Positions 3,955 to 53,945 of a stretch of 64,000 nt of DNA are shown piece by piece (the stretch's first letter is position 1; each line of letters begins with the position of its first letter). The stretch covers positions 2,523-66,522 of the forward strand of contig JAYUFZ010000016.1 of NCBI GenBank assembly GCA_043767845.1, read 5' to 3'. The translations under genes were made by a program, and so were the position numbers. The notes under the pieces were generated by a model. The model did no database searches. It had not been told where the DNA came from and was given only the letters and a program-made list of their open reading frames with translations. The DNA is from a bacterium (GTDB lineage: Bacteria; Patescibacteriota; Saccharimonadia; UBA4664; JBBRNT01).

Positions 3955-5298
3955 ATGAAATTCGCCCAACATATTTTCAAAGCTTATGATATTCGTGGCC
4001 TGGTGCCAGATGAATTAACCGTCGAGCTGGCCTATAGTGTCGGTGTGGCATTGGCCGACTTTTTGCCAGATGAAGGCCCCGTGGGTGTCGGCCGTGATAT
4101 GCGCCCCGATTCCGCCGAGCTGGCCGAGCATGTCCGGGCTGGTCTCATCGCCCAGGGCCGCGATGTGGTCGACATAGGCCAGGTCACCAGCGACATGATC
4201 TACTTCGCCGTCGGCAAGTACGACCTGGCCGGCGGAGCAATGATAACTGCCAGCCACAACCCCGGCCAATACAACGGCATAAAGATGTGCGGCAAAGCCG
4301 CACGCCCAATCGGAATTGAGACGGGGCTAGCAACAATCCGTGACGCCATTGCCGCCGACGACTTCAAAGAACCCACTCGTATCGGTCAGATCGCCCAAAA
4401 AGATATCGTCGATGCCTGGGTTGATCACTCCCTAGGCTTTGTCGATGTCGACAAATGGCCCCCTTACAAGATTGCAGTCGATGCCGGAAACGGCATGGCT
4501 GGAGCAATTATCCCTCATCTGCACGGCAAAACACCGCTTGAAGTCACGCCGATGTATTTCGAGCTAGATGGCACCTTCCCTAATCATCCGGCCAACCCAT
4601 TGGTGCCCGAGGGCACCGCCGACCTGCGCGCTCGAGTCAAAGCCGATAAGCTGGACTTCGGGGTGGCCTTCGATGGCGACGGTGACCGAGCTTTTCTGGT
4701 CGACGAATTAGGTAACCTCGTAACCGGGGGGCAAATGTCGGCCATGCTAGCCGCTGCCTTTTTGGCTAAGTTCCCTGGCGCCAATATCGTCTACGACGCC
4801 CGTAATTCACACACAGTTCCAGAAGTAATAACTGAACTAGGCGGTAAGCCTGTAATCTCCAAAGTCGGCCACAGCAATATCAAGGCTGTCATGCGCGAGG
4901 CCGACGCACCATTTGGTGGTGAATTCTCGGGGCATTACTACTTCCGCGACAACTATTATGCCGACTCCGGATTGATCGGCGCTTTGGCTGCTATCGATGT
5001 GCTCGCTAAGTCTGGTAAGAAGCTATCTGAACTGGCTGCCGAGTATAGCCACTACGCCTCGTCAGGCGAGATTAACTCCAAGGTTGAGGATCCAGCTGGC
5101 AAAATCGAGGAGCTGGTAAAAAAATACGAGGACGGCAATCAAGATCGCCTCGATGGCCTATCCGTAAACTACCCCACCTGGTGGTTCAATGTGCGTGGCA
5201 GCAACACCGAGCCTCTCCTGCGACTTAATGTTGAAGCCAAATCCGAGGCCGAAATGATTGCCAAACGGGACGAGCTGCTCGATTTGATCCGAGGCTAA
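3955..5298 (+). CDS. phosphomannomutase/phosphoglucomutase (alpha-D-phosphohexomutase)
   Basis: FKAYDIRG N-terminal motif and TASHNPGQYNGIK active-site serine loop. ORF-track start 3814 lies inside the palindrome; MKF… at 3955 is the more plausible start. Confidence 0.85.
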   Translation: MKFAQHIFKAYDIRGLVPDELTVELAYSVGVALADFLPDEGPVGVGRDMRPDSAELAEHVRAGLIAQGRDVVDIGQVTSDMIYFAVGKYDLAGGAMITASHNPGQYNGIKMCGKAARPIGIETGLATIRDAIAADDFKEPTRIGQIAQKDIVDAWVDHSLGFVDVDKWPPYKIAVDAGNGMAGAIIPHLHGKTPLEVTPMYFELDGTFPNHPANPLVPEGTADLRARVKADKLDFGVAFDGDGDRAFLVDELGNLVTGGQMSAMLAAAFLAKFPGANIVYDARNSHTVPEVITELGGKPVISKVGHSNIKAVMREADAPFGGEFSGHYYFRDNYYADSGLIGALAAIDVLAKSGKKLSELAAEYSHYASSGEINSKVEDPAGKIEELVKKYEDGNQDRLDGLSVNYPTWWFNVRGSNTEPLLRLNVEAKSEAEMIAKRDELLDLIRG

Positions 5299-5356: not shown

Positions 5357-5653
5357 ATGAATGCTGCTTTGAATCAACGGTTCGTCCCGCTCCCACGAGC
5401 TCTCGCCCGGATGTGGATGTTGGCTGCGGCCTTGGGTTTCTTGACTGGTCTACAGCGCCAGCCCGCCTACTGGTTGGTCAACGTGCCGTTCATGCTCTAC
5501 ATAGCAGCCCATCTGCTGCATCGCCAGCCAAACAGCACCGGATCAAAGCACGATGATTCGCTGGTGAACATCGCACTATCGTTCATCGCGGTCGGAATCG
5601 TCGTCCTTTTCTGGTTCAGTATCGGCGCGTTGATCCATCGGGCCTTGACCTGA
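5357..5653 (+). CDS. small membrane protein (98 aa), hypothetical
   Basis: GGAAGG 6 nt before ATG 5357. Two predicted TM helices. Rho-independent terminator 5673-5700. Confidence 0.4.
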   Translation: MNAALNQRFVPLPRALARMWMLAAALGFLTGLQRQPAYWLVNVPFMLYIAAHLLHRQPNSTGSKHDDSLVNIALSFIAVGIVVLFWFSIGALIHRALT

Positions 5654-5735: not shown

Positions 5736-6293
5736 ATGACAGCAAATGTGGCAAAACTTGGGCACAAGAAAGTCCGCGAATTGGCGCTTAGTGGCGAGGT
5801 TGTATTGGCGACGGCCGAGGGCTTGCGCCAGCTGAAGCTCCAAACCAATGCTCTCCAGACCGAGCGAAAACGCCTCGACTATGAGATAGGCGAGACGGTA
5901 AAAGATTATCCCGACTTACGCGAGAACGCCACCTACGATGTGCTCATTGCCAAGATCGACCACTCCTTGCCGCGTCAGGAGGCCGACTTGCGCGACCTTA
6001 TCCAGAAAACGCAATTGTACATTGAGAAAACCAAGGCCGACGTCGTAGCTTTCGGCTCAGTCTTTAATCTAGAGACCGTCGATGGCGATCAATCACGCTT
6101 TTGGCTCGCCGGCCCGATCGAAGCTGGCGCACAGCTTATGCAAGAAGACGCATTAGCAGTGTCGTATCTATCACCACTCGGCAAAGCCGTCTGGGGTGCG
6201 GCAGTGGGAGATGAGATCGAAGTCCGCTTGCCGGCTCGTGGCAAAGATCGCTTTACGCTCTACCGGGTTGTATCAGCTAAACGACCAAAATAA
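5736..6293 (+). CDS. greA: transcription elongation factor GreA-family
   Basis: N-terminal coiled coil plus C-terminal FKBP-like region (VSYLSPLGKAVWGAAVGDEIEVRLP resembles Gre SPIGRALIGK…GD). Confidence 0.7.
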   Translation: MTANVAKLGHKKVRELALSGEVVLATAEGLRQLKLQTNALQTERKRLDYEIGETVKDYPDLRENATYDVLIAKIDHSLPRQEADLRDLIQKTQLYIEKTKADVVAFGSVFNLETVDGDQSRFWLAGPIEAGAQLMQEDALAVSYLSPLGKAVWGAAVGDEIEVRLPARGKDRFTLYRVVSAKRPK

Positions 6294-27302: not shown

Positions 27303-27374
27303 GTCGCGCCCATCGTCCACCTGGCCCCGCCATCGGCGGGGTTTTTCATTTGTCAGAAATTGGCCAAAATCCGC

Positions 27375-27452
27375 GTTTTCAATCAGAAGGTTACCTTTTT
27401 ACGCAGAAGAAAGGTAACCTTCTATTTACATTCGGTATTTGTTTGGTATAAT
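27375..27452 (+). promoter_or_regulatory. dispersed promoter cassette copy B (palindrome 27385-27423, TTTACA 27425-30, TATAAT 27447-52)
   Basis: Identical to copies A, D and E. Confidence 0.6.
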
Positions 27453-27503
27453 GACCCGCGGCTGATTTTGAGCATGCTAAAATAAGTAAAAGTGGAGGCC
27501 AAA

Positions 27504-31365: not shown

Positions 31366-31484
31366 TGAAGCTCCTTAAGCCTCTCGATGTACAGGAGCCA
31401 CCACTCTAACACAGAATTCATCACGTGTCAATAGATACATCGAGAAGCGAGCAAAACGGCAGGTTCACAGCAGTCGCAAAAGGG

Positions 31485-31509
31485 TACCTTTTCTCCCCTT
31501 AAGAAGGTA
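31485..31509 (+). promoter_or_regulatory. variant palindrome TACCTTTTCTCCCCTTAAGAAGGTA overlapping -35 of a leaderless-type promoter (TACAAT-6nt-ATG); sibling at 35775-35799
   Basis: Two near-identical 25-mers, each upstream of a -10 box placed 6 nt before the ATG. Confidence 0.45.
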
Positions 31510-31532
31510 GGCTTCTTTGTTACAATAAAGTT

Positions 31533-33265: not shown

Positions 33266-33299
33266 AAATTCATTGTAGCACCCCAGCTGTACGAAAAGC

Positions 33300-33377
33300 A
33301 GTATACCAAACAAAAACCGAAAGTAAATAGAAGGTTACCTTTCTTCTGCGTGAAAAGGTAACCTTCTGAGCAATCAG
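33300..33377 (-). promoter_or_regulatory. dispersed promoter cassette copy C (minus orientation; -10 TATACT), drives the SIMPL gene
   Basis: Reverse complement matches copies A/B/D/E with one loop mismatch. Confidence 0.55.
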
Positions 33378-35652: not shown

Positions 35653-35840
35653 TCTGATCCATACAACACAAGCCCCTTGAGATTCAAATCTTTAGGGGCT
35701 GTTAATTATCAGATCAATAAACAAAAAAAGGCCCCCGCGAAGGGGCCTTTCGGCCCACCTATGTCCCAGAACCCTACCTTTTCTCCCCGTGAGAAGGTAA
35801 CCTTCTTTTGGCCGGTCGCTATCTGGGGTAAACTAAGCTT

Positions 35841-41283: not shown

Positions 41284-41322
41284 AAGTTCATCCTCGAACC
41301 TGAAAAGCAGCCCAAGTTCAGC

Positions 41323-41400
41323 GTTTTCGAATAGAAGGTTACCTTTTTACGCAGAAGAAAGGTAACCTTCTATTTACATTCGGTATTTGTTTGGTATACT
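41323..41400 (+). promoter_or_regulatory. dispersed promoter cassette copy D (palindrome 41333-41371, TTTACA, TATACT) upstream of dnaG-rpoD
   Basis: Identical to other copies through the -10. Confidence 0.6.
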
Positions 41401-41424
41401 GTACAGCACTGGTATACTAAGGAT

Positions 41425-43212: not shown

Positions 43213-44328
43213 TTGGCCAAGAAAACCACCGCTCCCGAAGGTGAAGAAACCACTACCCCGGGGTACACGCCCGAAATTGAACGCTTAATCGCCAAAGGCA
43301 AGGAACAAGGCTTCGTCACGCAGCAAGAAGTTGCCGCGGCAATTCCTGACGCCGAAGAAAACCTGGAAGATCTCGATGATCTCTACGCCGCGCTGCTCGA
43401 AAACGGCATCGAGCTAACCGACCAAAAAGAACGCCTCATCTGGGATACCGATGAAGATGATCCAACCGGCAAGCCGGAAAATGACGATTACATCAAAGAT
43501 ATCGCCGACGACTCGGTGCGTCTCTACCTGCGCGAGATCGGCAAGATCCCACTGCTGACCAGCGCCGAGGAAGTTACCCTTGCTAAACGTATCGAAGCCG
43601 GCGACAAGGCTGCCAAAGACGCTATGGCCGAGGCCAATATGCGCCTCGTCGTCTCCATTGCCAAAAAGTACATTGGCCGCGGTCTAGACCTATTAGACCT
43701 TATCCAAGAAGGCAATACCGGCCTATTGCGTGCCGTTGAAAAATTCGACTACACCAAGGGATATAAATTCTCGACCTACGCCACTTGGTGGATCCGCCAA
43801 GCTATTACCCGGGCCATTGCCGACCAAGCGCGCACCATCCGCATCCCCGTGCACATGGTTGAGACAATCAATAAGCTGATCCGTACCCAGCGTCGGCTGG
43901 TGCAAGAGCTTGGCCGCGAGCCAATGCCCGAAGAGATCGCTGCTGAGATGGAAATGGATGTCGATAAGGTGAACCATATTATCAAGATCAAGCAAGATAT
44001 CGTTTCTCTCGAAGCCCCAGTTGGTGAAGAAGATGACTCGCGCTTAGGTGACTTCATCGAAGACGAAGAAGCCCAAACCCCAGCCGAAGCTGCTACTTAC
44101 CAGCTGCTCAAAGAGCATGTTAATCAGGTATTAGCGCTCCTGACTCCCCGCGAGCAAAAAATTCTTCGTATGCGTTTCGGCCTCGAAGACGGCCGTAGCC
44201 ATACCTTAGAGGAAGTCGGCCAAGAGTTCGGCGTCACCCGCGAACGCATCCGCCAGATTGAGGCTAAAGCCCTGGCCAAGCTGCGCAAGCACCGCGAAAG
44301 TAAGAAACTGCGCGACTATCTAAGCTAA
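43213..44328 (+). CDS. rpoD: RNA polymerase sigma factor RpoD (short, 371 aa)
   Basis: Region 2 [32 protein letters not shown]…[27 protein letters not shown] and region 4 HTH. Confidence 0.95.
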
Positions 44329-44805: not shown

Positions 44806-44952
44806 ATCCAAACCTCTTCCGGCTCGAGCTTAGGCATGGAAGACGGCCGCACGGCGTCGCAGCTATCGAGATGGGTCTCCTCCCAGAGGCGAGATGGCTA
44901 TTAAAATTGACAAAACAGCGAAATAGTGTATAATGTATACTTATCGTCAGAA

Positions 44953-45429
44953 ATGGCGCGTTCCAGATCTCTCAATCTGCCCCTCTACCCAAAGGAGGCC
45001 TCCGTGGCCTACATCACCGTCACCCGCTACATCCCGGTCCACCCTGTGAGCCGCAAGCCCGTCAGCAAGAAGTATCCAGTCAGCTCCAAGAGACTGGCCA
45101 AGATCGGCCGCCGCGTGTTCAACACTGTGGGCTGGAACCTCATGATGAAGGTGCCGGTCGTACTCGACCTTGAGGACCTCACCGTCGACCTCATTTCGGC
45201 TCCCCGCGGTTCGATCAGTGGCCAAGACTTTGAAGTCACCCTAATCGTGGCCTCCGACGATGCCCTGCGGGTCTTTGACAGCGACTCCCCCAAGGAGCAG
45301 ATGGACGACATGGCCGAAGCCATCGCCCTGGCCTTGTTCCTTAAGGTCCCGCGCCATCTGTGCTACCACGTCTGGGTCCGTGCTTTGGGCCTTACCGGCT
45401 ATTGCCGGATGGATCCCAAAGACTGTTAG
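44953..45429 (+). CDS. hypothetical protein
   Basis: TTGACA-16-TATAAT promoter at 44907-44935. Terminator CCGCCTACCC…GGGTAGGCGG at about 45455-45490. Confidence 0.4.
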   Translation: MARSRSLNLPLYPKEASVAYITVTRYIPVHPVSRKPVSKKYPVSSKRLAKIGRRVFNTVGWNLMMKVPVVLDLEDLTVDLISAPRGSISGQDFEVTLIVASDDALRVFDSDSPKEQMDDMAEAIALALFLKVPRHLCYHVWVRALGLTGYCRMDPKDC

Positions 45430-45523
45430 CAAGTTCTTGTCCAGCCGCCCACCAACCGCCTACCCCTAACCGGGTAGGCGGTTTTGCGTTGCAATGAAAA
45501 ATAGCCCCACCGGGTTGGTGGGG

Positions 45524-46114
45524 CTAGGAGGGGATCATGAGCGCTTGCTTCAGCCAGGCAGAGAGGTTGCCCCAACGCTCCGGGGCGATGGCCAGCTTCA
45601 TGCGGCGTTGGCCAAGCCATGAGCCAGAGATGACTACCTGTCCGTAAGTTTGACCCCTGAGCTCGAGGCTTTTCAGGACAAGCGTGGCATCGGCACCGGG
45701 TATATGGTGGAGTTCGGCAAGGCAGTTGGGTTTTTCGCTTGGTGCGATCATTCCCCCGAGGTTCTCGTAGAGGAAGCGTATGCGCCCATCATTGTTGTTG
45801 TAGGGCTGCAAGAAGACAAGCCCTGGCGCTATGGATATGAGGTCACCGATCTGTTGTTCTCGCCACTCCGGACGATTATACCCGTAGTTGCTCTTTGCCC
45901 ATCTCTCGACATGATCGAGATCGGTGCCGAAAAATGGCTCTAGATCGATTTCATGGCCGCTGAGTCTGCGCAGGCTTGGCGGGCGCATGGTTTCGGTGGC
46001 GAAATGCTCAAGTAGCATCTGGGTAGCTGCCGGATTCCAAGTCCGCACATTGGTGCCGTGCTGGTACCAGAGCCCTCGGAGTAGTTCGTCTGGGTCGGGG
46101 AGGGTGATTGGCAT
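45524..46114 (-). CDS. hypothetical protein
   Basis: ORF. Minus-strand terminator hairpin AGCCCCA…TGGGGCT at 45497-45520. Confidence 0.4.
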   Translation of the reverse strand: MPITLPDPDELLRGLWYQHGTNVRTWNPAATQMLLEHFATETMRPPSLRRLSGHEIDLEPFFGTDLDHVERWAKSNYGYNRPEWREQQIGDLISIAPGLVFLQPYNNNDGRIRFLYENLGGMIAPSEKPNCLAELHHIPGADATLVLKSLELRGQTYGQVVISGSWLGQRRMKLAIAPERWGNLSAWLKQALMIPS

Positions 46115-46135
46115 GTCAAATTCCTATCCGTTGGG

Positions 46136-46771
46136 CTAGCTGGTCAGCGCGGCGGTGAGGTCTTGTGGGGAAATGGTGATGCGCAGGGTGTAGAACTGCC
46201 AGATTGTATCCAGTAGACCCATATTGCGCTGTTCCTCACTCTCTTTGGACGAGTAGAGCTGGTTGGAATCCCAGCACTTCGCTTGCAGTTGCTCGGTGGA
46301 CAAACTGGAGGGTGCTTTCATATCGGTGCAATATGGGGGCTTGCTGCGAGTCGGCACAAACTCCAGTACCGGGTTGGACTGGAAATTGCCCTGTTTCCAT
46401 TGCAGTTCGGTTCGGCTGATTTCTAGCTCAGTAATCTGGCCTTTCACTTCGAGCATCAGGATCAGGTTATCGGACAAGCCGATACCAGTATTCTTGGCAT
46501 TGAACAGGTGCAAGTGGGGGTTTGATCCACCGCCGATAGTGCCGACCGAAATGTCCTGCTTGCCGCTGGTCGGAATACCCAGCCTGCTGCTGAAATACTC
46601 TCGGCTAATGCTCACAGTCTTGGTCGGGAAGGTCTCGGGCTTGGCCTGAGCGTTTTGGCTAACTCCCAAGATCCATCCGGCGGTCATAATGACCAGGGCG
46701 ACGAGTGGCACAATCAGCCAGTCGAGAGTGTAGTAGGCGGCCTCACGGACCACTTTCCATAGCTTTGTCAT
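46136..46771 (-). CDS. hypothetical membrane-anchored protein
   Basis: N-terminal TM. AGGAA RBS. Confidence 0.4.
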   Translation of the reverse strand: MTKLWKVVREAAYYTLDWLIVPLVALVIMTAGWILGVSQNAQAKPETFPTKTVSISREYFSSRLGIPTSGKQDISVGTIGGGSNPHLHLFNAKNTGIGLSDNLILMLEVKGQITELEISRTELQWKQGNFQSNPVLEFVPTRSKPPYCTDMKAPSSLSTEQLQAKCWDSNQLYSSKESEEQRNMGLLDTIWQFYTLRITISPQDLTAALTS

Positions 46772-46889
46772 GTCAAATTCCTATCTGTCGATCGGGTGGG
46801 GCGATAATAGCATAATTTACTAGGTCCGTCACCCGGGTCGTCTTTACAAAGCAGAAGCCCCGCCGGATGGCGGGGCTTGGTGGACGGGG

Positions 46890-47300
46890 TGGACGGTGTT
46901 TCTGGTAGTTGGGGTTACCATCCTCGTGGGTGGTGCATCCGCAGACGCTGCACTCGGAGCGGGCGAAGCAGTCCTAGCCGATGGTCTTGTCCCAGACGTG
47001 CCAGCCTTACTTGAAACGGCCCAGAACGGCATTCTGCCCGTTGTGCGGACAAGGTACAGTTAGTGCGCCAAGTAGGCTATGGGCGGTCTCGATGTCGATC
47101 GGCATCCGGCGCATTGGCGGCGCTTCGGGGTTAAACCGCTTGGCCATGGCCACGTATGTTTCGCCCTGGTAGAGGGCGACCCACAGTTTGTGGTCTCGGA
47201 GTGGTGTGGTGCGGCCGAAGCGTTGGGCGGAACAAGACGGGGGTCATGGAACCTTTCAAGGGCAGTAGGCGGTCTCTGGGCATTGTGTCCAGGTGCATAG
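46890..47300 (-). pseudogene. possible decayed gene remnant (protein-like segments interrupted by in-frame stops; Cys-rich CSVCGC…PCPHNG pieces)
   Basis: Minus-strand translation gives …ALYQGETYVAMAKRFNPEAPPMRRMPIDIETAHSLLGALTVPCPHNGQNAVLGRFK*…*DCFARSECSVCGCTTHEDGNPNYQ. No intact ORF. Confidence 0.2.
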
Positions 47301-47377
47301 AACGCATATACAATAACATAAGTAGTATAAAGTCAATAACATTCTCGATTGAAGTCAACAAAAAGCCCCACTAGATT

Positions 47378-47719
47378 CTAATGGGGCGGCGGGTCACAGA
47401 GCGTGGCCGAGAGTGCTTGGAGGCTGGGCGAAAGGCGTTGGGCGGTTTGGTGTGCTCCCGGGCCGCTATAGCTGAGAGCTATCTTGAGGCCTACGCCTTG
47501 TTCGAGACTGGTGCAGTCGATCTTGATCTGGCTGGTTGACGTCGGGCCTGCAGCGCTGGGCTCCGTGAGCTGGTGATCACTTGGTGTGTGGCTGAAGGCG
47601 ATGAGAATTGCCCAGAAGCTCAAGATAACCACGAGAGCGATGGGGGCGATCAAGCGCTTAGAGATCTGAAAACTGATGCGGATGTGCTGGGTGCGAGTGC
47701 TACTGGCCAGGTCTGTCAC
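47378..47719 (-). CDS. small membrane-anchored hypothetical protein
   Basis: ORF followed on the minus strand by terminator GCCCCATTAGAATCTAGTGGGGC-TTTTTG (47362-47395). Confidence 0.4.
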   Translation of the reverse strand: MTDLASSTRTQHIRISFQISKRLIAPIALVVILSFWAILIAFSHTPSDHQLTEPSAAGPTSTSQIKIDCTSLEQGVGLKIALSYSGPGAHQTAQRLSPSLQALSATLCDPPPH

Positions 47720-48090
47720 AGTCCTTCTTTCATACCCGTGTCTCTGGAGGTCTCAGATTGCAGCTCGATAGTGCCTTATTCGGTGCTAAGTGTCAACATT
47801 ATCTACAATTTGTCAGTAAGAAATATTGCATTAATCCGATAAATATGTTACGGTCATATAGGTTGTCCATCTAGTTCGTTCCGACATAGGGAGGTTAACC
47901 TCACTTCAGCATTATTTTCGTCACCCTGGCGCAAATCATACCCATGAGGAGTATATGACCCCACGAAACTAGGGTTTCCGGCTTCAAATCTGCAGTAAAC
48001 CGCTCAGATTAGACATATAAAGCCGGTTGCCCGCACCAATCCACCTAGAGAGTAGGCAAAGCGTCTGCTCCAACGATATCTCTAAGGAGA

Positions 48091-48786
48091 ATGATGCGGC
48101 AATCAATACAATTCAAACAAGGCCAGAAGCGATTCTGGTCGATTAGCGTGCTGCTCGCAGCACTCATCAGCTTCACCGGCCTGGGTATTTCTCCGGCCAA
48201 AGCCTATGTAGACGAGTCACAGCCAACGGCTACCCAAGCGGTATCCCAACCTGTCGGCCCGGTCCTTGCTCGGCCCGAACCCATGGGCCTCCATGGTAGC
48301 CAAGATGCGGAACTAGCTGCGCTTGTCGAGCCAACTCCTGCGCTCACCGAGCCAGAAGTACCTTTTACCAAGGCCACACTTGAGCTAGCAGCCCAGATCA
48401 GCCCACCTGGAAAAATAGAGTCGCAATCCTTTCTAAAGGGGAGTGGTTCAGCTGGCATTAAGCAGATCATCCTAGAAGAATTTGCAGGAACAGGCGCGGG
48501 GAGTAAGGCTATTCGCGTTGCTCAGTGCGAGTCTACCCTCAATCCGAAGGCGCGGCATGTAAATAAGGCGGTCTTGATCAGGATTGGCAAGAGCAAGAAA
48601 AAGCTCGTTCGCAAGATCACGGTCGACCTTGGTCTCTTCCAGCTCAATGATGGCGGCACTGCGCAGACCCTTCTCAGGCGATTGGGTTACAGCTGGGACG
48701 CACTCTTCAACGCGCGTCTTAACGCTCGGATGGCTCGATCGCTCTGGAACGAGACCCATTCATTTGCACGCTGGACGTGCGGATGA
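48091..48786 (+). CDS. secreted lytic transglycosylase-like (lysozyme-like/SLT) domain protein
   Basis: Signal peptide. QCESTLNPKA…DLGLFQLND resembles the SLT ES…GLMQ(I/L) catalytic block. Confidence 0.5.
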   Translation: MMRQSIQFKQGQKRFWSISVLLAALISFTGLGISPAKAYVDESQPTATQAVSQPVGPVLARPEPMGLHGSQDAELAALVEPTPALTEPEVPFTKATLELAAQISPPGKIESQSFLKGSGSAGIKQIILEEFAGTGAGSKAIRVAQCESTLNPKARHVNKAVLIRIGKSKKKLVRKITVDLGLFQLNDGGTAQTLLRRLGYSWDALFNARLNARMARSLWNETHSFARWTCG

Positions 48787-48831
48787 GTACAGTGGATATG
48801 TACACGCACAAATCCTGAGGAGGTGAAAAGC

Positions 48832-49092
48832 GTGGAGAAGCCAATCAGTACTCCCGTTGCAAGAAATGTGGCATTGCAGAAATCGATCACCGATTACCTG
48901 CGCCGCTATAGTCAAGTGCCTGGTATGCGCCGGACAGCCCGTATTGTCCACGCTTTTGCCAAATCCGCTTCCCGCGATCAGATTGTGGCTCAACTCGAGC
49001 TCATGACAGATACGGGCACCATCGAAACCAACGGCTTCGGACGCTACCAGCTAGCTGACGATCCGGACGATCAATTATGCGAGGCCGTCTAA
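48832..49092 (+). CDS. small hypothetical protein
   Basis: GTG start with GAGGAGG 8 nt upstream. Confidence 0.35.
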   Translation: MEKPISTPVARNVALQKSITDYLRRYSQVPGMRRTARIVHAFAKSASRDQIVAQLELMTDTGTIETNGFGRYQLADDPDDQLCEAV

Positions 49093-49204: not shown

Positions 49205-49963
49205 ATGCAAATACCCGAATTAGCCAGCAAGCTGCAAGCCATAGGCCTCAATGACAAGGAGGCCCGTGTTTATGTTGCCAGCTTGTTTTTGGGGCCAGCA
49301 GCTGTGCAGCGCATTGCCGAGCAAGCGGGTGTTAATCGCGCCACAACCTACGTGATTCTGGGTCAACTCCAGGAGATGGGCCTGGTCAGTGAATCTACTG
49401 AGGCCAAAAAGACTGTCTACATCGCTGAAGGCCCAGAAGGTCTGGCGCGTTGGATTGCCGACCAAGAAGCCCTGGTGGCCACCCGCCGCAAGTCGCTCGA
49501 AGCGCTCACCGACGAATTACAGCAAGCGCAGCGCGTTGAAGAACGTGATGCTCCCGTGATCCGCTTCTACCGTGGCCGCGATGGGATTAGTAGTGTTCTT
49601 GAAGAGTCACGGCGAAAAAGACAACAAGGCGACGTGGTATATGGCTTTAGTGATAATGACGAAGCAGCAAAGATACTCCCCGACAACAGTAAAAAGTCAC
49701 CTGCTGCCCGTCTCAAGAAAAAGGTTTCAAGCAAGGCCTTCTATTACGCTAAGGGCAAGGGTTTAGCCTCGGATCCGAAATTGCTCCGAGAGGTCAAGAA
49801 GCTGGCTGCCGCTCCAAAGGCGGATATCTCCCTATCTCCTGGTCGCGCAACCATTATTACCTATCGAGGTGTCGATTCTATTGCCGTTGTCATAGAGAGC
49901 CAAGAGATTGTCGGTGCTCTTCGCCAGCTATTTGAACTGGCTTGGGAAAATAAGCCTGAGTAA
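49205..49963 (+). CDS. TrmB-family transcriptional regulator (second paralog)
   Basis: LNDKEARVYVASLFLGPAAVQRIAEQAGVNRATTYVILGQLQEMGLV. Confidence 0.7.
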   Translation: MQIPELASKLQAIGLNDKEARVYVASLFLGPAAVQRIAEQAGVNRATTYVILGQLQEMGLVSESTEAKKTVYIAEGPEGLARWIADQEALVATRRKSLEALTDELQQAQRVEERDAPVIRFYRGRDGISSVLEESRRKRQQGDVVYGFSDNDEAAKILPDNSKKSPAARLKKKVSSKAFYYAKGKGLASDPKLLREVKKLAAAPKADISLSPGRATIITYRGVDSIAVVIESQEIVGALRQLFELAWENKPE

Positions 49964-50009
49964 AAACTGTCACATCTAGTTGACAGAAAATCGATCTTAT
50001 GCTAGGATG

Positions 50010-50524
50010 TGAGCACCGTTTCTAAAAGCAGTTGCTGTCTTCCTGATGCTTGTGCGGTAGATGTCCGCACCATTGTTTTGATAGCGAAGCTCGACAGATG
50101 CACCCGGAAAGTCCTGGTGTAAGCCGTAAGGCGACGGTTAGTTACTCCTGGTGACTAATGGATTCCAATTAGTAGGTGGCACCCGAGCTGCCCAAAAACT
50201 CGGGTCGGTCGACATCGACCGTGTACGGTCCGGAGGCGGATAACCGCCCAGACACTGCTGCTGTAAGCGGCGCCTGATCGCTTCTACCAAGGAGGACCCC
50301 GACTCACAGATACGACGTGGCCTGAAAAGGTTGCAATCCAAAAGGCGTTTTCAGCGCCACAACACGCGGCTGTGCCGCGGAAACCATCGTCGATCGCCCA
50401 TCGCGATCAGCAACAAAATGGTCCGCTTGGCCGGTAGGAAAGTAGCTCACTTGCAGCAAACCCCTCCGGCCAGGCGCCCCCAATCTATGATCTTTATACC
50501 TAAACGCCTCTGGGCGTTTTTTGT
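50010..50524 (+). ncRNA. candidate structured ncRNA (about 515 nt) bounded by promoter and terminator; identity unresolved
   Basis: TTGACA-17-TAGGAT at 49979-50007. Terminator AAACGCC-TCTG-GGCGTTTTTT at 50503-50524. No ORF longer than 18 aa with a start. Contains GGAAAGUCC and a GGCGG-AUAA-CCGCC hairpin. Confidence 0.35.
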
Positions 50525-51034
50525 TTGCCTTGTTGCGCAGACCTCACTTACAATTTGTATGAACTGTGGATAACTGGATCAAATTTAAGTAATTTAGTCG
50601 GCATTCATTGACGCTAATAAACTATTACTCAACGGATAGGAAGTTAGAATGATTTAAGATATTACACAGAATGTGTTGACACAAAATTATAGACGTGATA
50701 ATCTACAATCAGTTCAAAGAAAAAATGTCAAAGAGGAGGGACAGAATGGAACAATTACGAGTCGACAAAGCTGTGAGCAGCGCCAAAAAGTGTCAACGGC
50801 TATGGGATGACTCGGGCTAGCGGTGAGTAACAAAAATCTTTTACGGGTTCGAAGTTTCTAGGCAAGCGAGAGAAAAACCATATAACTTCCGGTTCAGCAC
50901 AGTGCCACATAATTACGATCAAGTATTAGGGCAGGTTTAGGCAGAAGCGGGGGTTAGGTTCAAAAACAAGAGAGATGGGCTTTTAGGGTAAGCACATCTC
51001 TTTTTTGTTTTGTACGAAAATACATCGTTTTACC

Positions 51035-51112
51035 GATTTCGAATAGAAGGTTACCTTTTTACGCAGAAGAAAGGTAACCTTCTATTTACATTCGGTATTT
51101 GTTTGGTATAAT
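51035..51112 (+). promoter_or_regulatory. dispersed promoter cassette copy E (palindrome 51045-51083, TTTACA 51085-90, TATAAT 51107-12) upstream of polA
   Basis: Identical to other copies. Confidence 0.6.
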
Positions 51113-51158
51113 GCTTTTTTCGGGTTTCAGCGAGTTGCTGGGCTGGTATACTTAACGC

Positions 51159-53945
51159 ATGAGTAAAAAACCACTTCTCGTCCTTATAGACGGCAGCGCT
51201 ATCTTCCACCGCGGCTACCACGCCATCCCGCCAACCTTTACCAATAAAGCTGGCCAGCCGACCAATGCCATTTATGGCTTTACCATGATCCTGCTGAAAG
51301 TTCTGGCCGATCTGTCGCCTAAGTACGCCGTAGTGGCGTGGGATATGCCCGGCGGCACCTTCCGTGATGACCTTTACGACCAGTACAAGGCGACCCGTAG
51401 TGCCACGCCGGACGATCTGAAGGCCCAAATGCCATACGCTCGAACTGTCACAGAGGCCCTCGGCATTAGCTTCGTGGAGCTATTCAAGTATGAAGCCGAT
51501 GACATCATAGGTACCTTCGCTGCGCAGGCTCATCACCAGAAAGAGCAGCTCGAGACTATCATTATCACAGGCGATAAGGATCAGCTGCAGCTCATAGACG
51601 AGCAAACCAGAGTCTTTTTGTATCGGCCGGTGGGCACCGATCCTATCAAGTACGATCTGGAAAAGATGCAGGAACGCTATGGCCTGACCCCGAAACAGTT
51701 CATTGACCTGAAGGCGCTGATGGGCGACTCCAGCGACAATATTCCGGGCGTAGCTGGCGTTGGCGAGAAGACGGCCATGACCATGATGGCCTCCTATGGC
51801 AGCCTGGATAATATCTATGCCCATGTCGACGAACTGAAGGGCAAACTCCAGGAACGGATGCTCGACCAAAAGGACATGGCCTATCTATCTCTTGAGCTTT
51901 CTCGGATTGCTTTGGACGCGCCGGTGAAGCTGGATATGGAGCAGGCTCGGCTGGGAACGGCCAAGAAGGAAGAGCTGATCGAGCTATTCAGGGAACTTGA
52001 TTTCAGGAGCCTGCTAGCTAAGCTACCCTCTGCTATCCATGCCGATGAGGCCGAGCTAGCGACTATTAGCGCCCAATCATCGGTCATCAGCGGTATGCCT
52101 AGCCTGTTTGGTGATGCTCCAGTGGTGGTACGCGACCGCCCACACCTCAAGACCGCCAAATATCATACCGTAGCTACCGAAGCTGATCTGGAAAAGCTGG
52201 CTGCTGAGCTGAGTAAGCAAAAAGTCTTTGCTTTTGATACCGAGACCACCGGCCTGGATGTCCTCACCGCTGATCTGGTGGGCATGAGCTTTAGTTTCAA
52301 GGCTGAGGAGGCATATTATGTGCCTGTAGGGCATGCTGGCAGTGATCAGGTGCAATTATCCAAACAAATGGTGCTACAAGCATTGAAACCAATTCTGGAG
52401 AATCCAGCCATCGGTAAGGTGGGGCACAATATTAAGTACGACTTCGAGATAATGCTGCGCCAGGGAGTTCGTCTGGGCAATGTGGCCTTCGACACTATGG
52501 TGGCCGCCTTTATCGTCAATCCGCTGGGCCGTACACAATCGCTCGATGACCTAGCTTCCAGCGAACTCGGGGTGGAGATGATTCCGATCTCGGAGCTGAT
52601 CGGCACCGGTAAGCAACAGCTCAACTTTTCTAATGTCTCTATCGAGCAAGCGACGACCTACGCTGCCGAGGATGCCGATATGACCTGGCGATTGTACGAG
52701 CTACTTGCGCCACAGATCCCAAAAGGCGGCTATGAACGGCTGACAGGCGATATCGAGTGGCCGCTTATTCCCGTTTTGGCCGACATGGAAATGGCTGGTA
52801 TTGAGCTGGATTCGGACTTCTTGGCTAAGTTCAATAAGGTCATTTCCAGGCGTATTCTGGAGCTCGATGAGCTGATCTGCGAGGCCGCCGGGGAGCGCTT
52901 TAATATAGCCTCGCCTTCGCAACTGTCGCGCATTCTCTTCGAGAAGCTAGCACTTACGGCAATAGGGGTTAAAAAAGGCAAAACCGGCACTATGTCGACA
53001 GCCGCCGGCGAGCTGGAGAAGCTTAAGGGCCAGCACCCCATCGTTGATCTGATATTTGAATACCGCGAACTAGCCAAGCTCAAGAACACCTACGTCGACG
53101 CCTTGCCGTTGATGGTTGGCGAGGATGGCCGGGTACATACCAGCTTTAACCAAACAATTGCCCAAACCGGCCGACTCTCATCGACCAATCCCAACCTGCA
53201 AAACATTCCGGTGCGTAGCGAGCTTGGTCGCGAGATTCGTAAGGCTTTTGTGGCCCCGAAGGGTAAAGTGCTCATTAGCGCCGACTATTCGCAGATCGAG
53301 CTGCGCGTGGCTGCCTCGCTATCTGGTGATAAAGCGATGATTAAGACATTTACCGATGGTATTGATCTGCATCAGCAGACAGCCGCCGAGCTCTATGGAG
53401 TACCACTTGAAGAGGTGACTAAGGAGCAGCGCTACAACGCCAAAACTATCAATTTCGGGGTGCTCTACGGCATGAGCCCACACGGGCTGAGCGTGGCTAC
53501 CGGGATGACCCGAGAGGAGGCGGTTGGCTTCATCGAACGCTACTATGAACTGCGGCCGAAGCTGAAGTCCTACATCGAGGGGATCAAGGCCGACGCCCGT
53601 AAAAACGAGTACGTTGAGACGCTCTTTGGCCGCCGCCGCCCCTGCGCTGAGATTAATTCTAGCAATTCTTTGATCTCCAACGCTGCTGAGCGCATGGCTG
53701 TGAACGTGCCAATCCAAGGTACCGCCGCCGATATTATGAAGCTAGCCATGGTAGCCCTAGCTCCGAAGCTGACTGGTGAAAATAAGCTCCTGCTCCAGAT
53801 ACACGATGAATTGATAGCTGAAGTCCCGGCCGATCAAGCCGATGCGGTGACCAAGATTATGAAAGACACTATGGAATCAGTTTATGATCTGGGCGTGAAG
53901 ATCGAAGTAGACACTGCCGTGGGCAAGAACTGGGGAGAGCTGTAG
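51159..53945 (+). CDS. polA: DNA polymerase I
   Basis: 5'-3' exonuclease N-terminus, 3'-5' exo, and polymerase motifs (RRxAKxxNFGxxYG, HDE). Confidence 0.95.
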   Translation: MSKKPLLVLIDGSAIFHRGYHAIPPTFTNKAGQPTNAIYGFTMILLKVLADLSPKYAVVAWDMPGGTFRDDLYDQYKATRSATPDDLKAQMPYARTVTEALGISFVELFKYEADDIIGTFAAQAHHQKEQLETIIITGDKDQLQLIDEQTRVFLYRPVGTDPIKYDLEKMQERYGLTPKQFIDLKALMGDSSDNIPGVAGVGEKTAMTMMASYGSLDNIYAHVDELKGKLQERMLDQKDMAYLSLELSRIALDAPVKLDMEQARLGTAKKEELIELFRELDFRSLLAKLPSAIHADEAELATISAQSSVISGMPSLFGDAPVVVRDRPHLKTAKYHTVATEADLEKLAAELSKQKVFAFDTETTGLDVLTADLVGMSFSFKAEEAYYVPVGHAGSDQVQLSKQMVLQALKPILENPAIGKVGHNIKYDFEIMLRQGVRLGNVAFDTMVAAFIVNPLGRTQSLDDLASSELGVEMIPISELIGTGKQQLNFSNVSIEQATTYAAEDADMTWRLYELLAPQIPKGGYERLTGDIEWPLIPVLADMEMAGIELDSDFLAKFNKVISRRILELDELICEAAGERFNIASPSQLSRILFEKLALTAIGVKKGKTGTMSTAAGELEKLKGQHPIVDLIFEYRELAKLKNTYVDALPLMVGEDGRVHTSFNQTIAQTGRLSSTNPNLQNIPVRSELGREIRKAFVAPKGKVLISADYSQIELRVAASLSGDKAMIKTFTDGIDLHQQTAAELYGVPLEEVTKEQRYNAKTINFGVLYGMSPHGLSVATGMTREEAVGFIERYYELRPKLKSYIEGIKADARKNEYVETLFGRRRPCAEINSSNSLISNAAERMAVNVPIQGTAADIMKLAMVALAPKLTGENKLLLQIHDELIAEVPADQADAVTKIMKDTMESVYDLGVKIEVDTAVGKNWGEL

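Follow-up and report, generated by a model that had tools for sequence, protein, structure and literature searches.

What occupies the 1.2 kb without a convincing gene (positions 49964-51158) between the stop codon of a 252-aa regulator gene (49205-49963) and polA (51159-53945) in a Saccharibacteria genome? The locus lies in a 64-kb stretch of contig JAYUFZ010000016.1; this entire stretch is referred to as the window. A contig identical to it is present in sequencing run SRR23617225. The window derives from a Saccharibacteria (TM7) genome, and its PolA is 55-60% identical to the PolA proteins of Saccharibacteria metagenome-assembled genomes. Genomes of this group are ~1 Mb in size and have very short intergenic regions. 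An initial annotation of this DNA described a promoter-to-terminator unit in the first 0.5 kb of the gap, here termed RNA1, as a candidate structured RNA and possibly a divergent RNase P RNA. From the sequence comparisons presented below, it appears about an even call whether the interval is an independent gene for a lineage-specific, fast-evolving, structured and regulator-adjacent non-coding RNA (ncRNA) of ~510 nt. It is judged fairly probable that the unit represents a genuine, functional ncRNA gene and not a decaying spacer, a purely cis-acting untranslated region (UTR) or leader, or a set of hidden small open reading frames (ORFs).

A promoter-to-terminator unit beside a TrmB-family regulator

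Both transcription signals named in the initial annotation are present. A near-consensus sigma-70 promoter (P1; TTGACA-17-(TG)c-TAGGAT, 49980-50008, + strand), which matches the consensus at 10 of 12 positions and carries a TG before the -10 box, begins 16 nt past the regulator stop codon. The transcript predicted from it, RNA1, would start 4-7 nt after the -10 box and extend for ~510 nt (50012-50524, + strand). A clean intrinsic terminator (AAACGCC-UCUG-GGCGUUU with a 7-bp stem, a 4-nt loop and a U-run; 50502-50527, + strand, hairpin at 50502-50519) is found ~515 nt on. The GC content is 0.56-0.61 in the 515-nt unit versus 0.36-0.39 in the spacer downstream, and the unit is predicted to fold into some 12 GC-rich hairpins arranged as a multi-branched chain, among them the GGCGG-AUAA-CCGCC hairpin (50235-50248, + strand) that had also been pointed out. 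Internal repeats are limited to short, chance-level matches, and two nested long-range complementarities (50009-50024/50435-50450 and 50066-50080/50411-50425) have no comparative support. With its own promoter, its own intrinsic terminator and no translatable ORF, RNA1 has the sequence features of a stand-alone ncRNA gene.

The absence of any ORF of more than 18 aa with a start codon, as initially stated, holds roughly. ORFs inside the unit range from 4 to 37 aa, but these include GTG- and TTG-initiated ORFs of 30-37 aa, and two ATG-initiated ORFs (51 aa from 50418 and 28 aa from 50487) read through the terminator. These ORFs, together with the 4-codon mini-ORFs and strong Shine-Dalgarno (SD) sequences in the units of some relatives (see the next but one section), might point to one or more unannotated small-protein genes inside the unit. 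Such genes are very unlikely, however: no RNA1 ORF is preceded by an SD sequence, the ATG-initiated ORFs cross the terminator, and the window does not contain the mini-ORF motif. No start codon lies within 20 nt of AAGGAGG (50289), the only strong SD-like motif of the unit, and reading UGA as a sense codon across RNA1 still yielded no long ORF. Six-frame translation of the unit revealed no Pfam domain; together with the UGA reading, this made up a negative pseudogene test. In addition, blastn searches of the unit against phage and plasmid records returned no match.

When the minimum free energy of RNA1 was compared with that of dinucleotide shuffles, z-scores of -3.4 and -2.7 were obtained for the + and - strands, respectively. 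After removal of the terminator, the values were -4.5 for the + strand versus -2.3 for the opposite strand. All 11 units analysed in this way (those of the window and 10 relatives, terminators removed) gave + strand z-scores of -2.5 to -9.1, and the + strand folded better than the - strand in 8 of them; six coding segments of the window, used as controls, gave -1.75 to +0.74. The unit as a whole exceeds chance, both in its folding z-scores and in the occurrence of the same layout at the same place in the 10 relatives.

For the comparison of layouts, the contigs of ten distinct homologues of the regulator (L023, L025, L027, L042, L043, L045, L047, L048, L050 and L052) were used; these regulators are 51-78% identical among themselves and 54-63% identical to that of the window. 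All 11 loci share the same order, namely regulator stop codon, P1, GC-rich unit and terminator. In each of them a TTGACA-17-TAnnnT promoter, its -10 box usually preceded by TG or GC, lies within ~30 nt of the regulator stop codon, and in two the -35 box overlaps the end of the regulator gene. The RNA1-type units are 330-560 nt in length and GC-rich, gene callers marked only one 43-aa ORF in them (L048), and an intrinsic terminator closes the unit in every relative. A second TTGACA-17-TAnnnT promoter follows 58-170 nt past the RNA1 terminator, after an AT-rich spacer, in all 10 loci that extend so far. The gene neighbourhood of the module is variable: polA (window and L027), PGI (L050 and L052) or Nramp (L025) follows it, and groEL, leuS or rpoD is found upstream. 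Because the surrounding genes differ between lineages, the regulator-RNA module appears to travel as a unit. Distant TrmB relatives of other candidate phyla radiation (CPR) bacteria (26-33% identity), detected by a metagenome scan with the regulator protein, are without this architecture, and polA-anchored Saccharibacteria loci contain neither the regulator nor the intergenic gap. The initial description as a candidate structured RNA is thus borne out by the conserved promoter and terminator, the lack of a coding signal, the excess folding of the + strand and the shared layout. The accompanying remark was that a compact genome rarely keeps 0.5 kb of promoter-driven non-coding sequence by accident; as read from these sequences, positional and architectural conservation show that the unit is not an accident.

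The same observations bear on the possibility that the interval is a functionless or decaying hypervariable spacer, e.g. what is left of a ribozyme-rich 'RNA island' like that of the relatives, that is transcribed only through a chance strong promoter. Sequence turnover among the relatives is nearly total, insertions and decay are suggested by the many tiny ORFs, the hammerheads and a tmRNA-like fragment that they carry in this interval, and the neighbourhood of the unit in the window (44.4-49.1 kb) contains genes without family matches. A decaying spacer is nevertheless considered unlikely. The promoter sequence, its spacing, the palindrome described below, the terminator and the size class are kept in all 11 lineages, across 51-78% protein identity, and all units show strongly negative folding z-scores while the coding controls do not. 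In addition, neither pseudogene traces nor mobile-element similarity was detected, and it is rare for reduced genomes of ~1 Mb to hold on to a neutral 0.5-kb segment at the same site throughout all lineages.

It is rather improbable that the unit is a cis-acting element, i.e. a long structured 3' UTR by which the regulator mRNA is stabilised or terminated, or a leader whose terminator gates read-through into polA or into RNA2, the second unit of the gap. There is no intervening terminator between the regulator stop codon and RNA1, so that the regulator mRNA must enter the unit; the unit is co-oriented with RNA2 and polA; and the 5' domains of some relatives contain mutually exclusive SD, anti-SD and anti-anti-SD pairings, which are typical of switches. 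However, a near-consensus promoter of its own precedes the unit in all lineages, the next unit again has its own promoter beyond the AT-rich spacer, and, as the downstream protein gene varies, a constant regulated gene is lacking. RNA1 matched none of the riboswitch or leader families of Rfam at E<=10.

The upstream gene (+ strand), initially labelled trmB, does not encode a tRNA (m7G46) methyltransferase but a TrmB-family (TrmBL2-like) winged-helix DNA-binding regulator (Pfam PF01978, a helix-turn-helix family; E 4.3e-13). Its 179 homologues are nearly all from Saccharibacteria or other Patescibacteria, with 64% identity for the nearest. For the AlphaFold model of the protein (mean pLDDT 90), the best Foldseek matches were full-length TrmBL2 (5bqt/5bpd/5bpi), with E 1e-12, followed by MarR-type winged-helix regulators that matched the N-terminal domain only; a sequence search against the PDB found TrmB as a weak match. 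TrmBL2 is an archaeal TrmB-like chromatin protein and global repressor. On the basis of the full-length structural match to TrmBL2, the modelled regulator is therefore taken to be a dimeric DNA binder.

A palindrome, CTGTCA-N8-TGACAG (49967-49986), lies over the -35 box of P1 and represents a putative operator. The pattern TGTCA-N6-10-TGACA occurs only once in the window, at P1 with a spacing of N8, and the exact palindrome is present at the homologous position in five relatives (L025, L042, L045, L048 and L050). An nGTCA half-site, located 8-9 nt before TTGACA and thus forming GTCA-N8-TGAC, is found in 9-10 of the 11 loci; the second promoters are without it. We infer from its position over the -35 box of the adjacent promoter that the palindrome is a natural candidate site for the regulator, and RNA1 is probably controlled by this protein.

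RNase P RNA and other RNA families

Rfam 15 was searched at the gathering score with the whole window, at E<=10 with 1401 nt, and at E<=10 with lax filters with 526 nt. The only gathering-score match in the window is one tRNA, in agreement with the earlier remark that no other RNase P, tmRNA, 6S or SRP RNA is recognisable there. The RNase P models (bacterial A and B, archaeal and nuclear) gave no match at the gathering score or at E<=10 with either shorter segment, and the same two segments yielded no match at E<=10 with the tmRNA, 6S, SRP, OLE, GOLLD, ROOL, HEARO and raiA models; the families proposed for checking by the initial annotation went unmatched at all three stringencies. A search of the wider island around the unit found nothing relevant, the units of the relatives likewise contain no matches to OLE, GOLLD, ROOL, HEARO, raiA or other large ncRNAs of Rfam, and ARAGORN detected no tmRNA in the unit. 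RNA1 belongs to no Rfam family, membership failing for every family tested.

CPR bacteria carry diverged P RNAs that score below Rfam thresholds but retain the universally conserved core (PMC8172020). Because lowered thresholds are needed for such RNAs, the features of P4 and of conserved region V (CR-V) were examined directly. The initial annotation had noted that the interval holds the most conserved P4 block, and the nonamer GGAAAGTCC is indeed present (50106-50114), but at chance level: there is one copy in 64 kb, and at least one copy was found in 37 of 100 shuffles. In the predicted fold, GGAAAGUCC lies within a local hairpin, CACCCGG-AAAGU-CCUGGUG (50101-50119, + strand), of which it makes up the loop and the 3' side. 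The P4 partner strand for GGAAAGUCC, ACAGAAnCCGGCUUA (CR-V), was not found downstream, and the CR-V block ACAGAA-CCGGCUUA is absent from the unit. The only downstream complements of GGAAAGUCC of at least 6 bp are G-U-rich pairings with the U-tail of the terminator and with one other U-run; a further 6-bp pairing, CCUGGU/GCCAGG, falls just outside the block.

A divergent RNase P RNA, with GGAAAGUCC as the 5' strand of P4 in a reduced P RNA of the CPR type missed by Rfam, can be claimed to share several properties with the unit. Like type A RNase P RNA (RF00010, including the CPR forms; PMC8172020), RNA1 is stand-alone, ORF-less, GC-rich and within the size range of 350-500 nt, the nonamer is located ~95 nt from the 5' end in both, and rnpB is not recognisable elsewhere in the window. 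The last point is uninformative, since 64 kb is a small part of the genome. Unlike RNase P RNA, RNA1 has no covariance-model match even with lax filters, no P4 pseudoknot partner and no CR-V, and its nonamer sits in a local hairpin. Moreover, GGAAAGUCC is confined to the window unit, the 10 syntenic units of the relatives being without it or carrying variants, and these units are mutually unalignable even though the flanking protein is up to 78% identical, which is incompatible with the universally conserved core of an essential ribozyme. The proposal of a divergent RNase P RNA is accordingly rejected and retains hardly any credibility. In practical terms, the 'most conserved RNase P block' can appear by chance in a GC-rich hairpin.

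Sequence turnover and a proposed role for RNA1

According to the sequence comparisons, position, promoter, palindrome, size range, GC-richness, foldedness and terminator are kept among the 11 loci and the primary sequence turns over fast. The k-mers shared among the 11 RNA1 units do not exceed chance level. No match to the window unit was obtained by blastn or nhmmer in polA-anchored or regulator-anchored Saccharibacteria loci, and blastn among the 11 units found matches only for L023/L047 and L045/L047 and one of 20 nt for L048/L052. In global alignments, z-scores above 5 were seen only within the group of L023, L042 and L047, and the window unit did not exceed 2.6 against any other unit. Sequence conservation of the interval in related genomes, whose lack the initial annotation had named, together with the lack of an Rfam hit and of expression, as refuting its proposal, was thus not found by k-mers, blastn or global alignment in the 10 relatives.

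Only four relatives (L023, L042, L045 and L047) have a common 5' domain of ~115 nt, to which the covariation observed is confined. RNAalifold predicted 21 pairs for it, 10 of them kept through double-sided changes; among these is a hairpin of 8 bp in which four positions are compensatory and every pair is intact. A covariance model built from this domain (R1) scores its four training members at 80-111 bits and, with default filters, detects no further sequence at E<=10. R1-type units and the window unit have the same locus, promoter, palindrome, strand and terminator, and share a pentaloop hairpin ~100 nt from the unit start that is preceded by a purine-rich strand. This hairpin has the form GG-AAAGU-CC in the window and GG-AAGGU-CC in L023 and L047, with an A-U for C-G exchange in the stem, and similar hairpins are found at the corresponding distance in L045 and L042. 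The best R1 match in intergenic DNA of the window is co-linear with the 5' end of RNA1 and ends exactly on the GGAAAGUCC hairpin. Unlike the R1-type units, the window unit is without the GAAAGGRGG...AUGG mini-ORF hairpin and the CCYCC-AAGG blocks. Common descent of window RNA1 with the R1 units is suggested, not demonstrated, by position and this one hairpin.

The 5' domains of these relatives also contain a strong SD sequence (AAAGGAGG or AAGGGGG), followed after 5-8 nt by AUG, three codons and a stop codon, which lies in a hairpin loop in most cases. Copies were located at 4830-4870 and 4945-4985 in L023, ~4830-4870 and ~4990-5030 in L045, ~4835-4875 in L047, and ~2955-2995 in L042, and the encoded peptides are MDGV, MGGV, MNGT, MHGT, MDGL and METI. 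Mutually exclusive SD : CYYCC : GGRRG pairings are present in the same domains, an arrangement that looks like a switch around a 4-codon mini-ORF. This arrangement is absent from RNA1 of the window.

If RNA1 is an independent ncRNA gene, it would be transcribed from P1 and end at 50520-50527. The dimeric regulator would bind GTCA-N8-TGAC over the -35 box and set the level of RNA1, in the simplest case as a repressor; since no terminator intervenes, the regulator mRNA probably also reads into RNA1 and uses the RNA1 terminator. RNA1 itself would act in trans as a stable regulatory RNA, either pairing with targets through its few predicted unpaired C-rich or AU-rich segments or titrating a protein on its hairpins. 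A candidate interaction site is the C-rich and then AU-rich segment GCGCCCCCAAUCUAUGAUCUUUAUACCU directly before the terminator (50477-50501, + strand), the 3' part of which (50491-50501) is predicted to be unpaired with a probability of 0.8. Similar AU-rich tails precede the terminators in L043, L027, L050 and L047. Other predicted unpaired segments of RNA1 are the loops at 50190-50198 and 50333-50343.

Several points weigh against an independent, trans-acting RNA1 under the control of the regulator. The opposite strands of the units also reach z-scores of -0.7 to -6, so that a palindromic, GC-rich composition could account for part of the low folding energy. Because TrmBL2 itself binds DNA with little specificity, the palindrome can be assigned as operator only by inference. 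When the unpaired segments of RNA1 were used in a target search of the 64-kb window, the complements were unremarkable and none lay near gene starts, and no co-evolving partner was found in RNA2. The RNA1 units of L050/L052 and of L027/L043 share only short islands although their regulators are 77-78% identical. The RNA1 units of most relatives are unalignable and no alignable homologue of the window RNA was obtained; common descent of all units is unproven. A search of the whole window with R1 and default filters returned nothing at E<=10; with filters off, the best intergenic match (49970-50124) scored 5.3 bits with E ~0.1, which is not significant, and a sequence profile of the pentaloop hairpin region failed to recover the window copy.

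Neighbouring elements and comparison with known RNAs

The second unit of the gap follows a 150-nt AT-rich spacer. Its promoter, P2 (TTGACA-17-TAATCT with an upstream TG; 50676-50704, + strand), precedes RNA2 (50711-51010, + strand), a predicted unit of ~300 nt with its own terminator (50962-51010). RNA2 contains a 24-aa ORF, MEQLRVDKAVSSAKKCQRLWDDSG (50746-50820), behind a strong SD sequence, AAAGAGGAGG, and its 3' part of ~140 nt carries three UUAGG repeats. At the RNA2 position, L023, L027 and L043 have an ORF of 52-62 aa, those of L027 (52 aa) and L043 (56 aa) sharing the motif ...ICxxFFxxGxESGHxC..., and L050 and L052 have an ORF-less RNA that is conserved between the two. RNA1 and RNA2 were considered as a co-evolving pair, an idea that was rejected because the duplex energy within loci (-175.9) is close to that between loci (-174.2), duplexfold being blunt on such long inputs. 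The spacer between RNA1 and RNA2 contains a perfect DnaA-box consensus, TTATCCACA (50565-50573, - strand). An origin of replication (oriC) at this site was rejected: in the window, DnaA boxes with up to one mismatch are no denser than expected by chance and form no cluster at this site.

A cassette of ~90 nt is present in at least five copies in the 64 kb (1407-1496, 27364-27453, 41312-41401 and 51024-51113 on the + strand and 33292-33369 on the - strand), and diverged copies are found at 31473-31518 and 35763-35808. It consists of a near-perfect hairpin, AGAAGGTTACCTTT-N11-AAAGGTAACCTTCT, with arms of up to 28 nt at 51031-51097, followed by TTTACA-16-(TG)TATAAT. At least some copies are located directly upstream of genes, namely polA (51159) and the ORFs starting at 27492 and 41425. 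The cassette may represent either a miniature repeat element that carries a promoter or an operator/promoter module shared among sites.

A second 1.3-kb stretch without a convincing gene (46772-48090), partly with a GC content of 0.6, lies between rpoD (43213-44328) and the regulator. It contains minus-strand terminators (46878-46855 and 47387-47365), a possible 113-aa membrane ORF (47378-47719, - strand) and fragmented ORFs (46844-47361) that resemble a decayed gene. The ORFs in 44926-46771 and 48823-49092 have no Pfam match, and the ORF at 48091-48786 has a weak SLT-domain match.

In two relatives, end-to-end matches of 80 nt to the tmRNA model were found (L043 4250-4329, 68.8 bits; L047 6515-6596, 52.1 bits), in which 9-15 nt replace the ~300-nt pseudoknot and tag-template domain. 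The copy in L043 has a complete tRNA-like domain (acceptor stem with G3-U70, T-arm and ACAA end) and no mRNA part; the lower-scoring copy in L047 has acceptor-stem mismatches. The element was not called by ARAGORN, and it overlaps a weak match to permuted tmRNA. Possible readings are a template-less mini-tmRNA, part of an unusual split tmRNA, or a relic. Rfam found no such element in the window.

In the relatives, the gene-poor stretch that follows the regulator contains type III hammerhead motifs on its + strand (CUGAUGAG...CGAAAC with flanking helices), i.e. at 6099-6153 and 6939-6995 in L047, ~5490-5545 in L045, ~4765-4820, ~5470-5500 and ~6265-6320 in L043, ~6285-6370 in L027 and ~5690-5765 in L023; further motifs were found in L038 and L039 (- strand). 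Both hammerheads of L047, which bracket the tmRNA-like element, score 41 bits (E ~5e-7), just below the gathering score, and the one in L045 is situated at the start of RNA2. No hammerhead motif was found in the window.

Among known systems, 6S RNA and the actinobacterial Ms1 RNA (~300 nt for the latter) are abundant RNA-polymerase-binding RNAs. They resemble RNA1 in having a strong promoter, a terminator end, high structure and a fold kept over sequence. A possible sub-case of the trans-acting ncRNA proposed above is an abundant, protein-sequestering RNA like 6S/Ms1 or CsrB, in which selection would act on shape and copy number instead of sequence. The strong promoter, the stable GC-rich fold and the labile sequence with foldedness kept would suit such an RNA, no 6S RNA is recognisable in the window, and rpoD is located three genes upstream of the regulator in a relative contig (P0010) and 4.9 kb upstream in the window. 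Unlike 6S and Ms1, however, RNA1 matches no 6S or CsrB model, and it is predicted to fold as a multi-branched hairpin chain instead of a rod with a central bubble. By eye, no enrichment of GGA motifs is apparent, and that of SD-like motifs over all units is modest (20 vs 9.9 +/- 3.6). A sequestering RNA of this type is decidedly improbable.

OLE, GOLLD, ROOL, raiA and HEARO RNAs are likewise 0.3-0.8 kb in length, without an ORF and heavily structured, but these families have conserved cores and abundant covariation, unlike the RNA1 units, which are mostly unalignable and match no model. The 3'-UTR-type small RNAs of enterobacteria (e.g. DapZ and MicL) share with RNA1 an own promoter at or after the end of the upstream coding sequence, the lack of a terminator in between and a terminator shared with the upstream mRNA. 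RNA1 differs from them in being five to ten times longer and in that the upstream gene encodes the presumed regulator of the RNA. As far as its sequence can be interpreted, RNA1 is an unclassified stand-alone bacterial ncRNA gene. It is only speculative that RNA1 belongs to a class of large RNAs (330-560 nt) found throughout Saccharibacteria, which would be selected for structure while their sequence evolves fast and would be hard-wired to a TrmBL2-like chromatin or regulator protein. On this view the locus in relatives is a dedicated 'RNA island' in which hammerheads, small-peptide RNAs and a tmRNA-like tRNA-like domain without a tag template are also located.

Hfq and ProQ are not known to have been described in Saccharibacteria. 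Our literature searches turned up no account of an RNA of this kind, nor any of small RNAs in the group. A preprint on the TM7x transcriptome states that there are 'no currently validated small RNAs' (10.1101/2022.03.25.485537). Saccharibacteria are now transformable (PMC10633639), so that a deletion is feasible, and the adjacent regulator with its palindrome offers an obvious handle. The locus further illustrates that synteny can expose RNA genes that are missed by sequence or covariance searches. Its unusual features are the phylum-level conservation of a regulator-RNA module and the speed of sequence turnover. If real, a 0.5-kb RNA beside the same regulator across diverged lineages would be among the first defined riboregulators of the phylum, and its fast turnover under a kept architecture would fit an RNA with a part in conflict or in the interaction of these epibionts with their hosts, or else the RNA component of an as yet unknown ribonucleoprotein.

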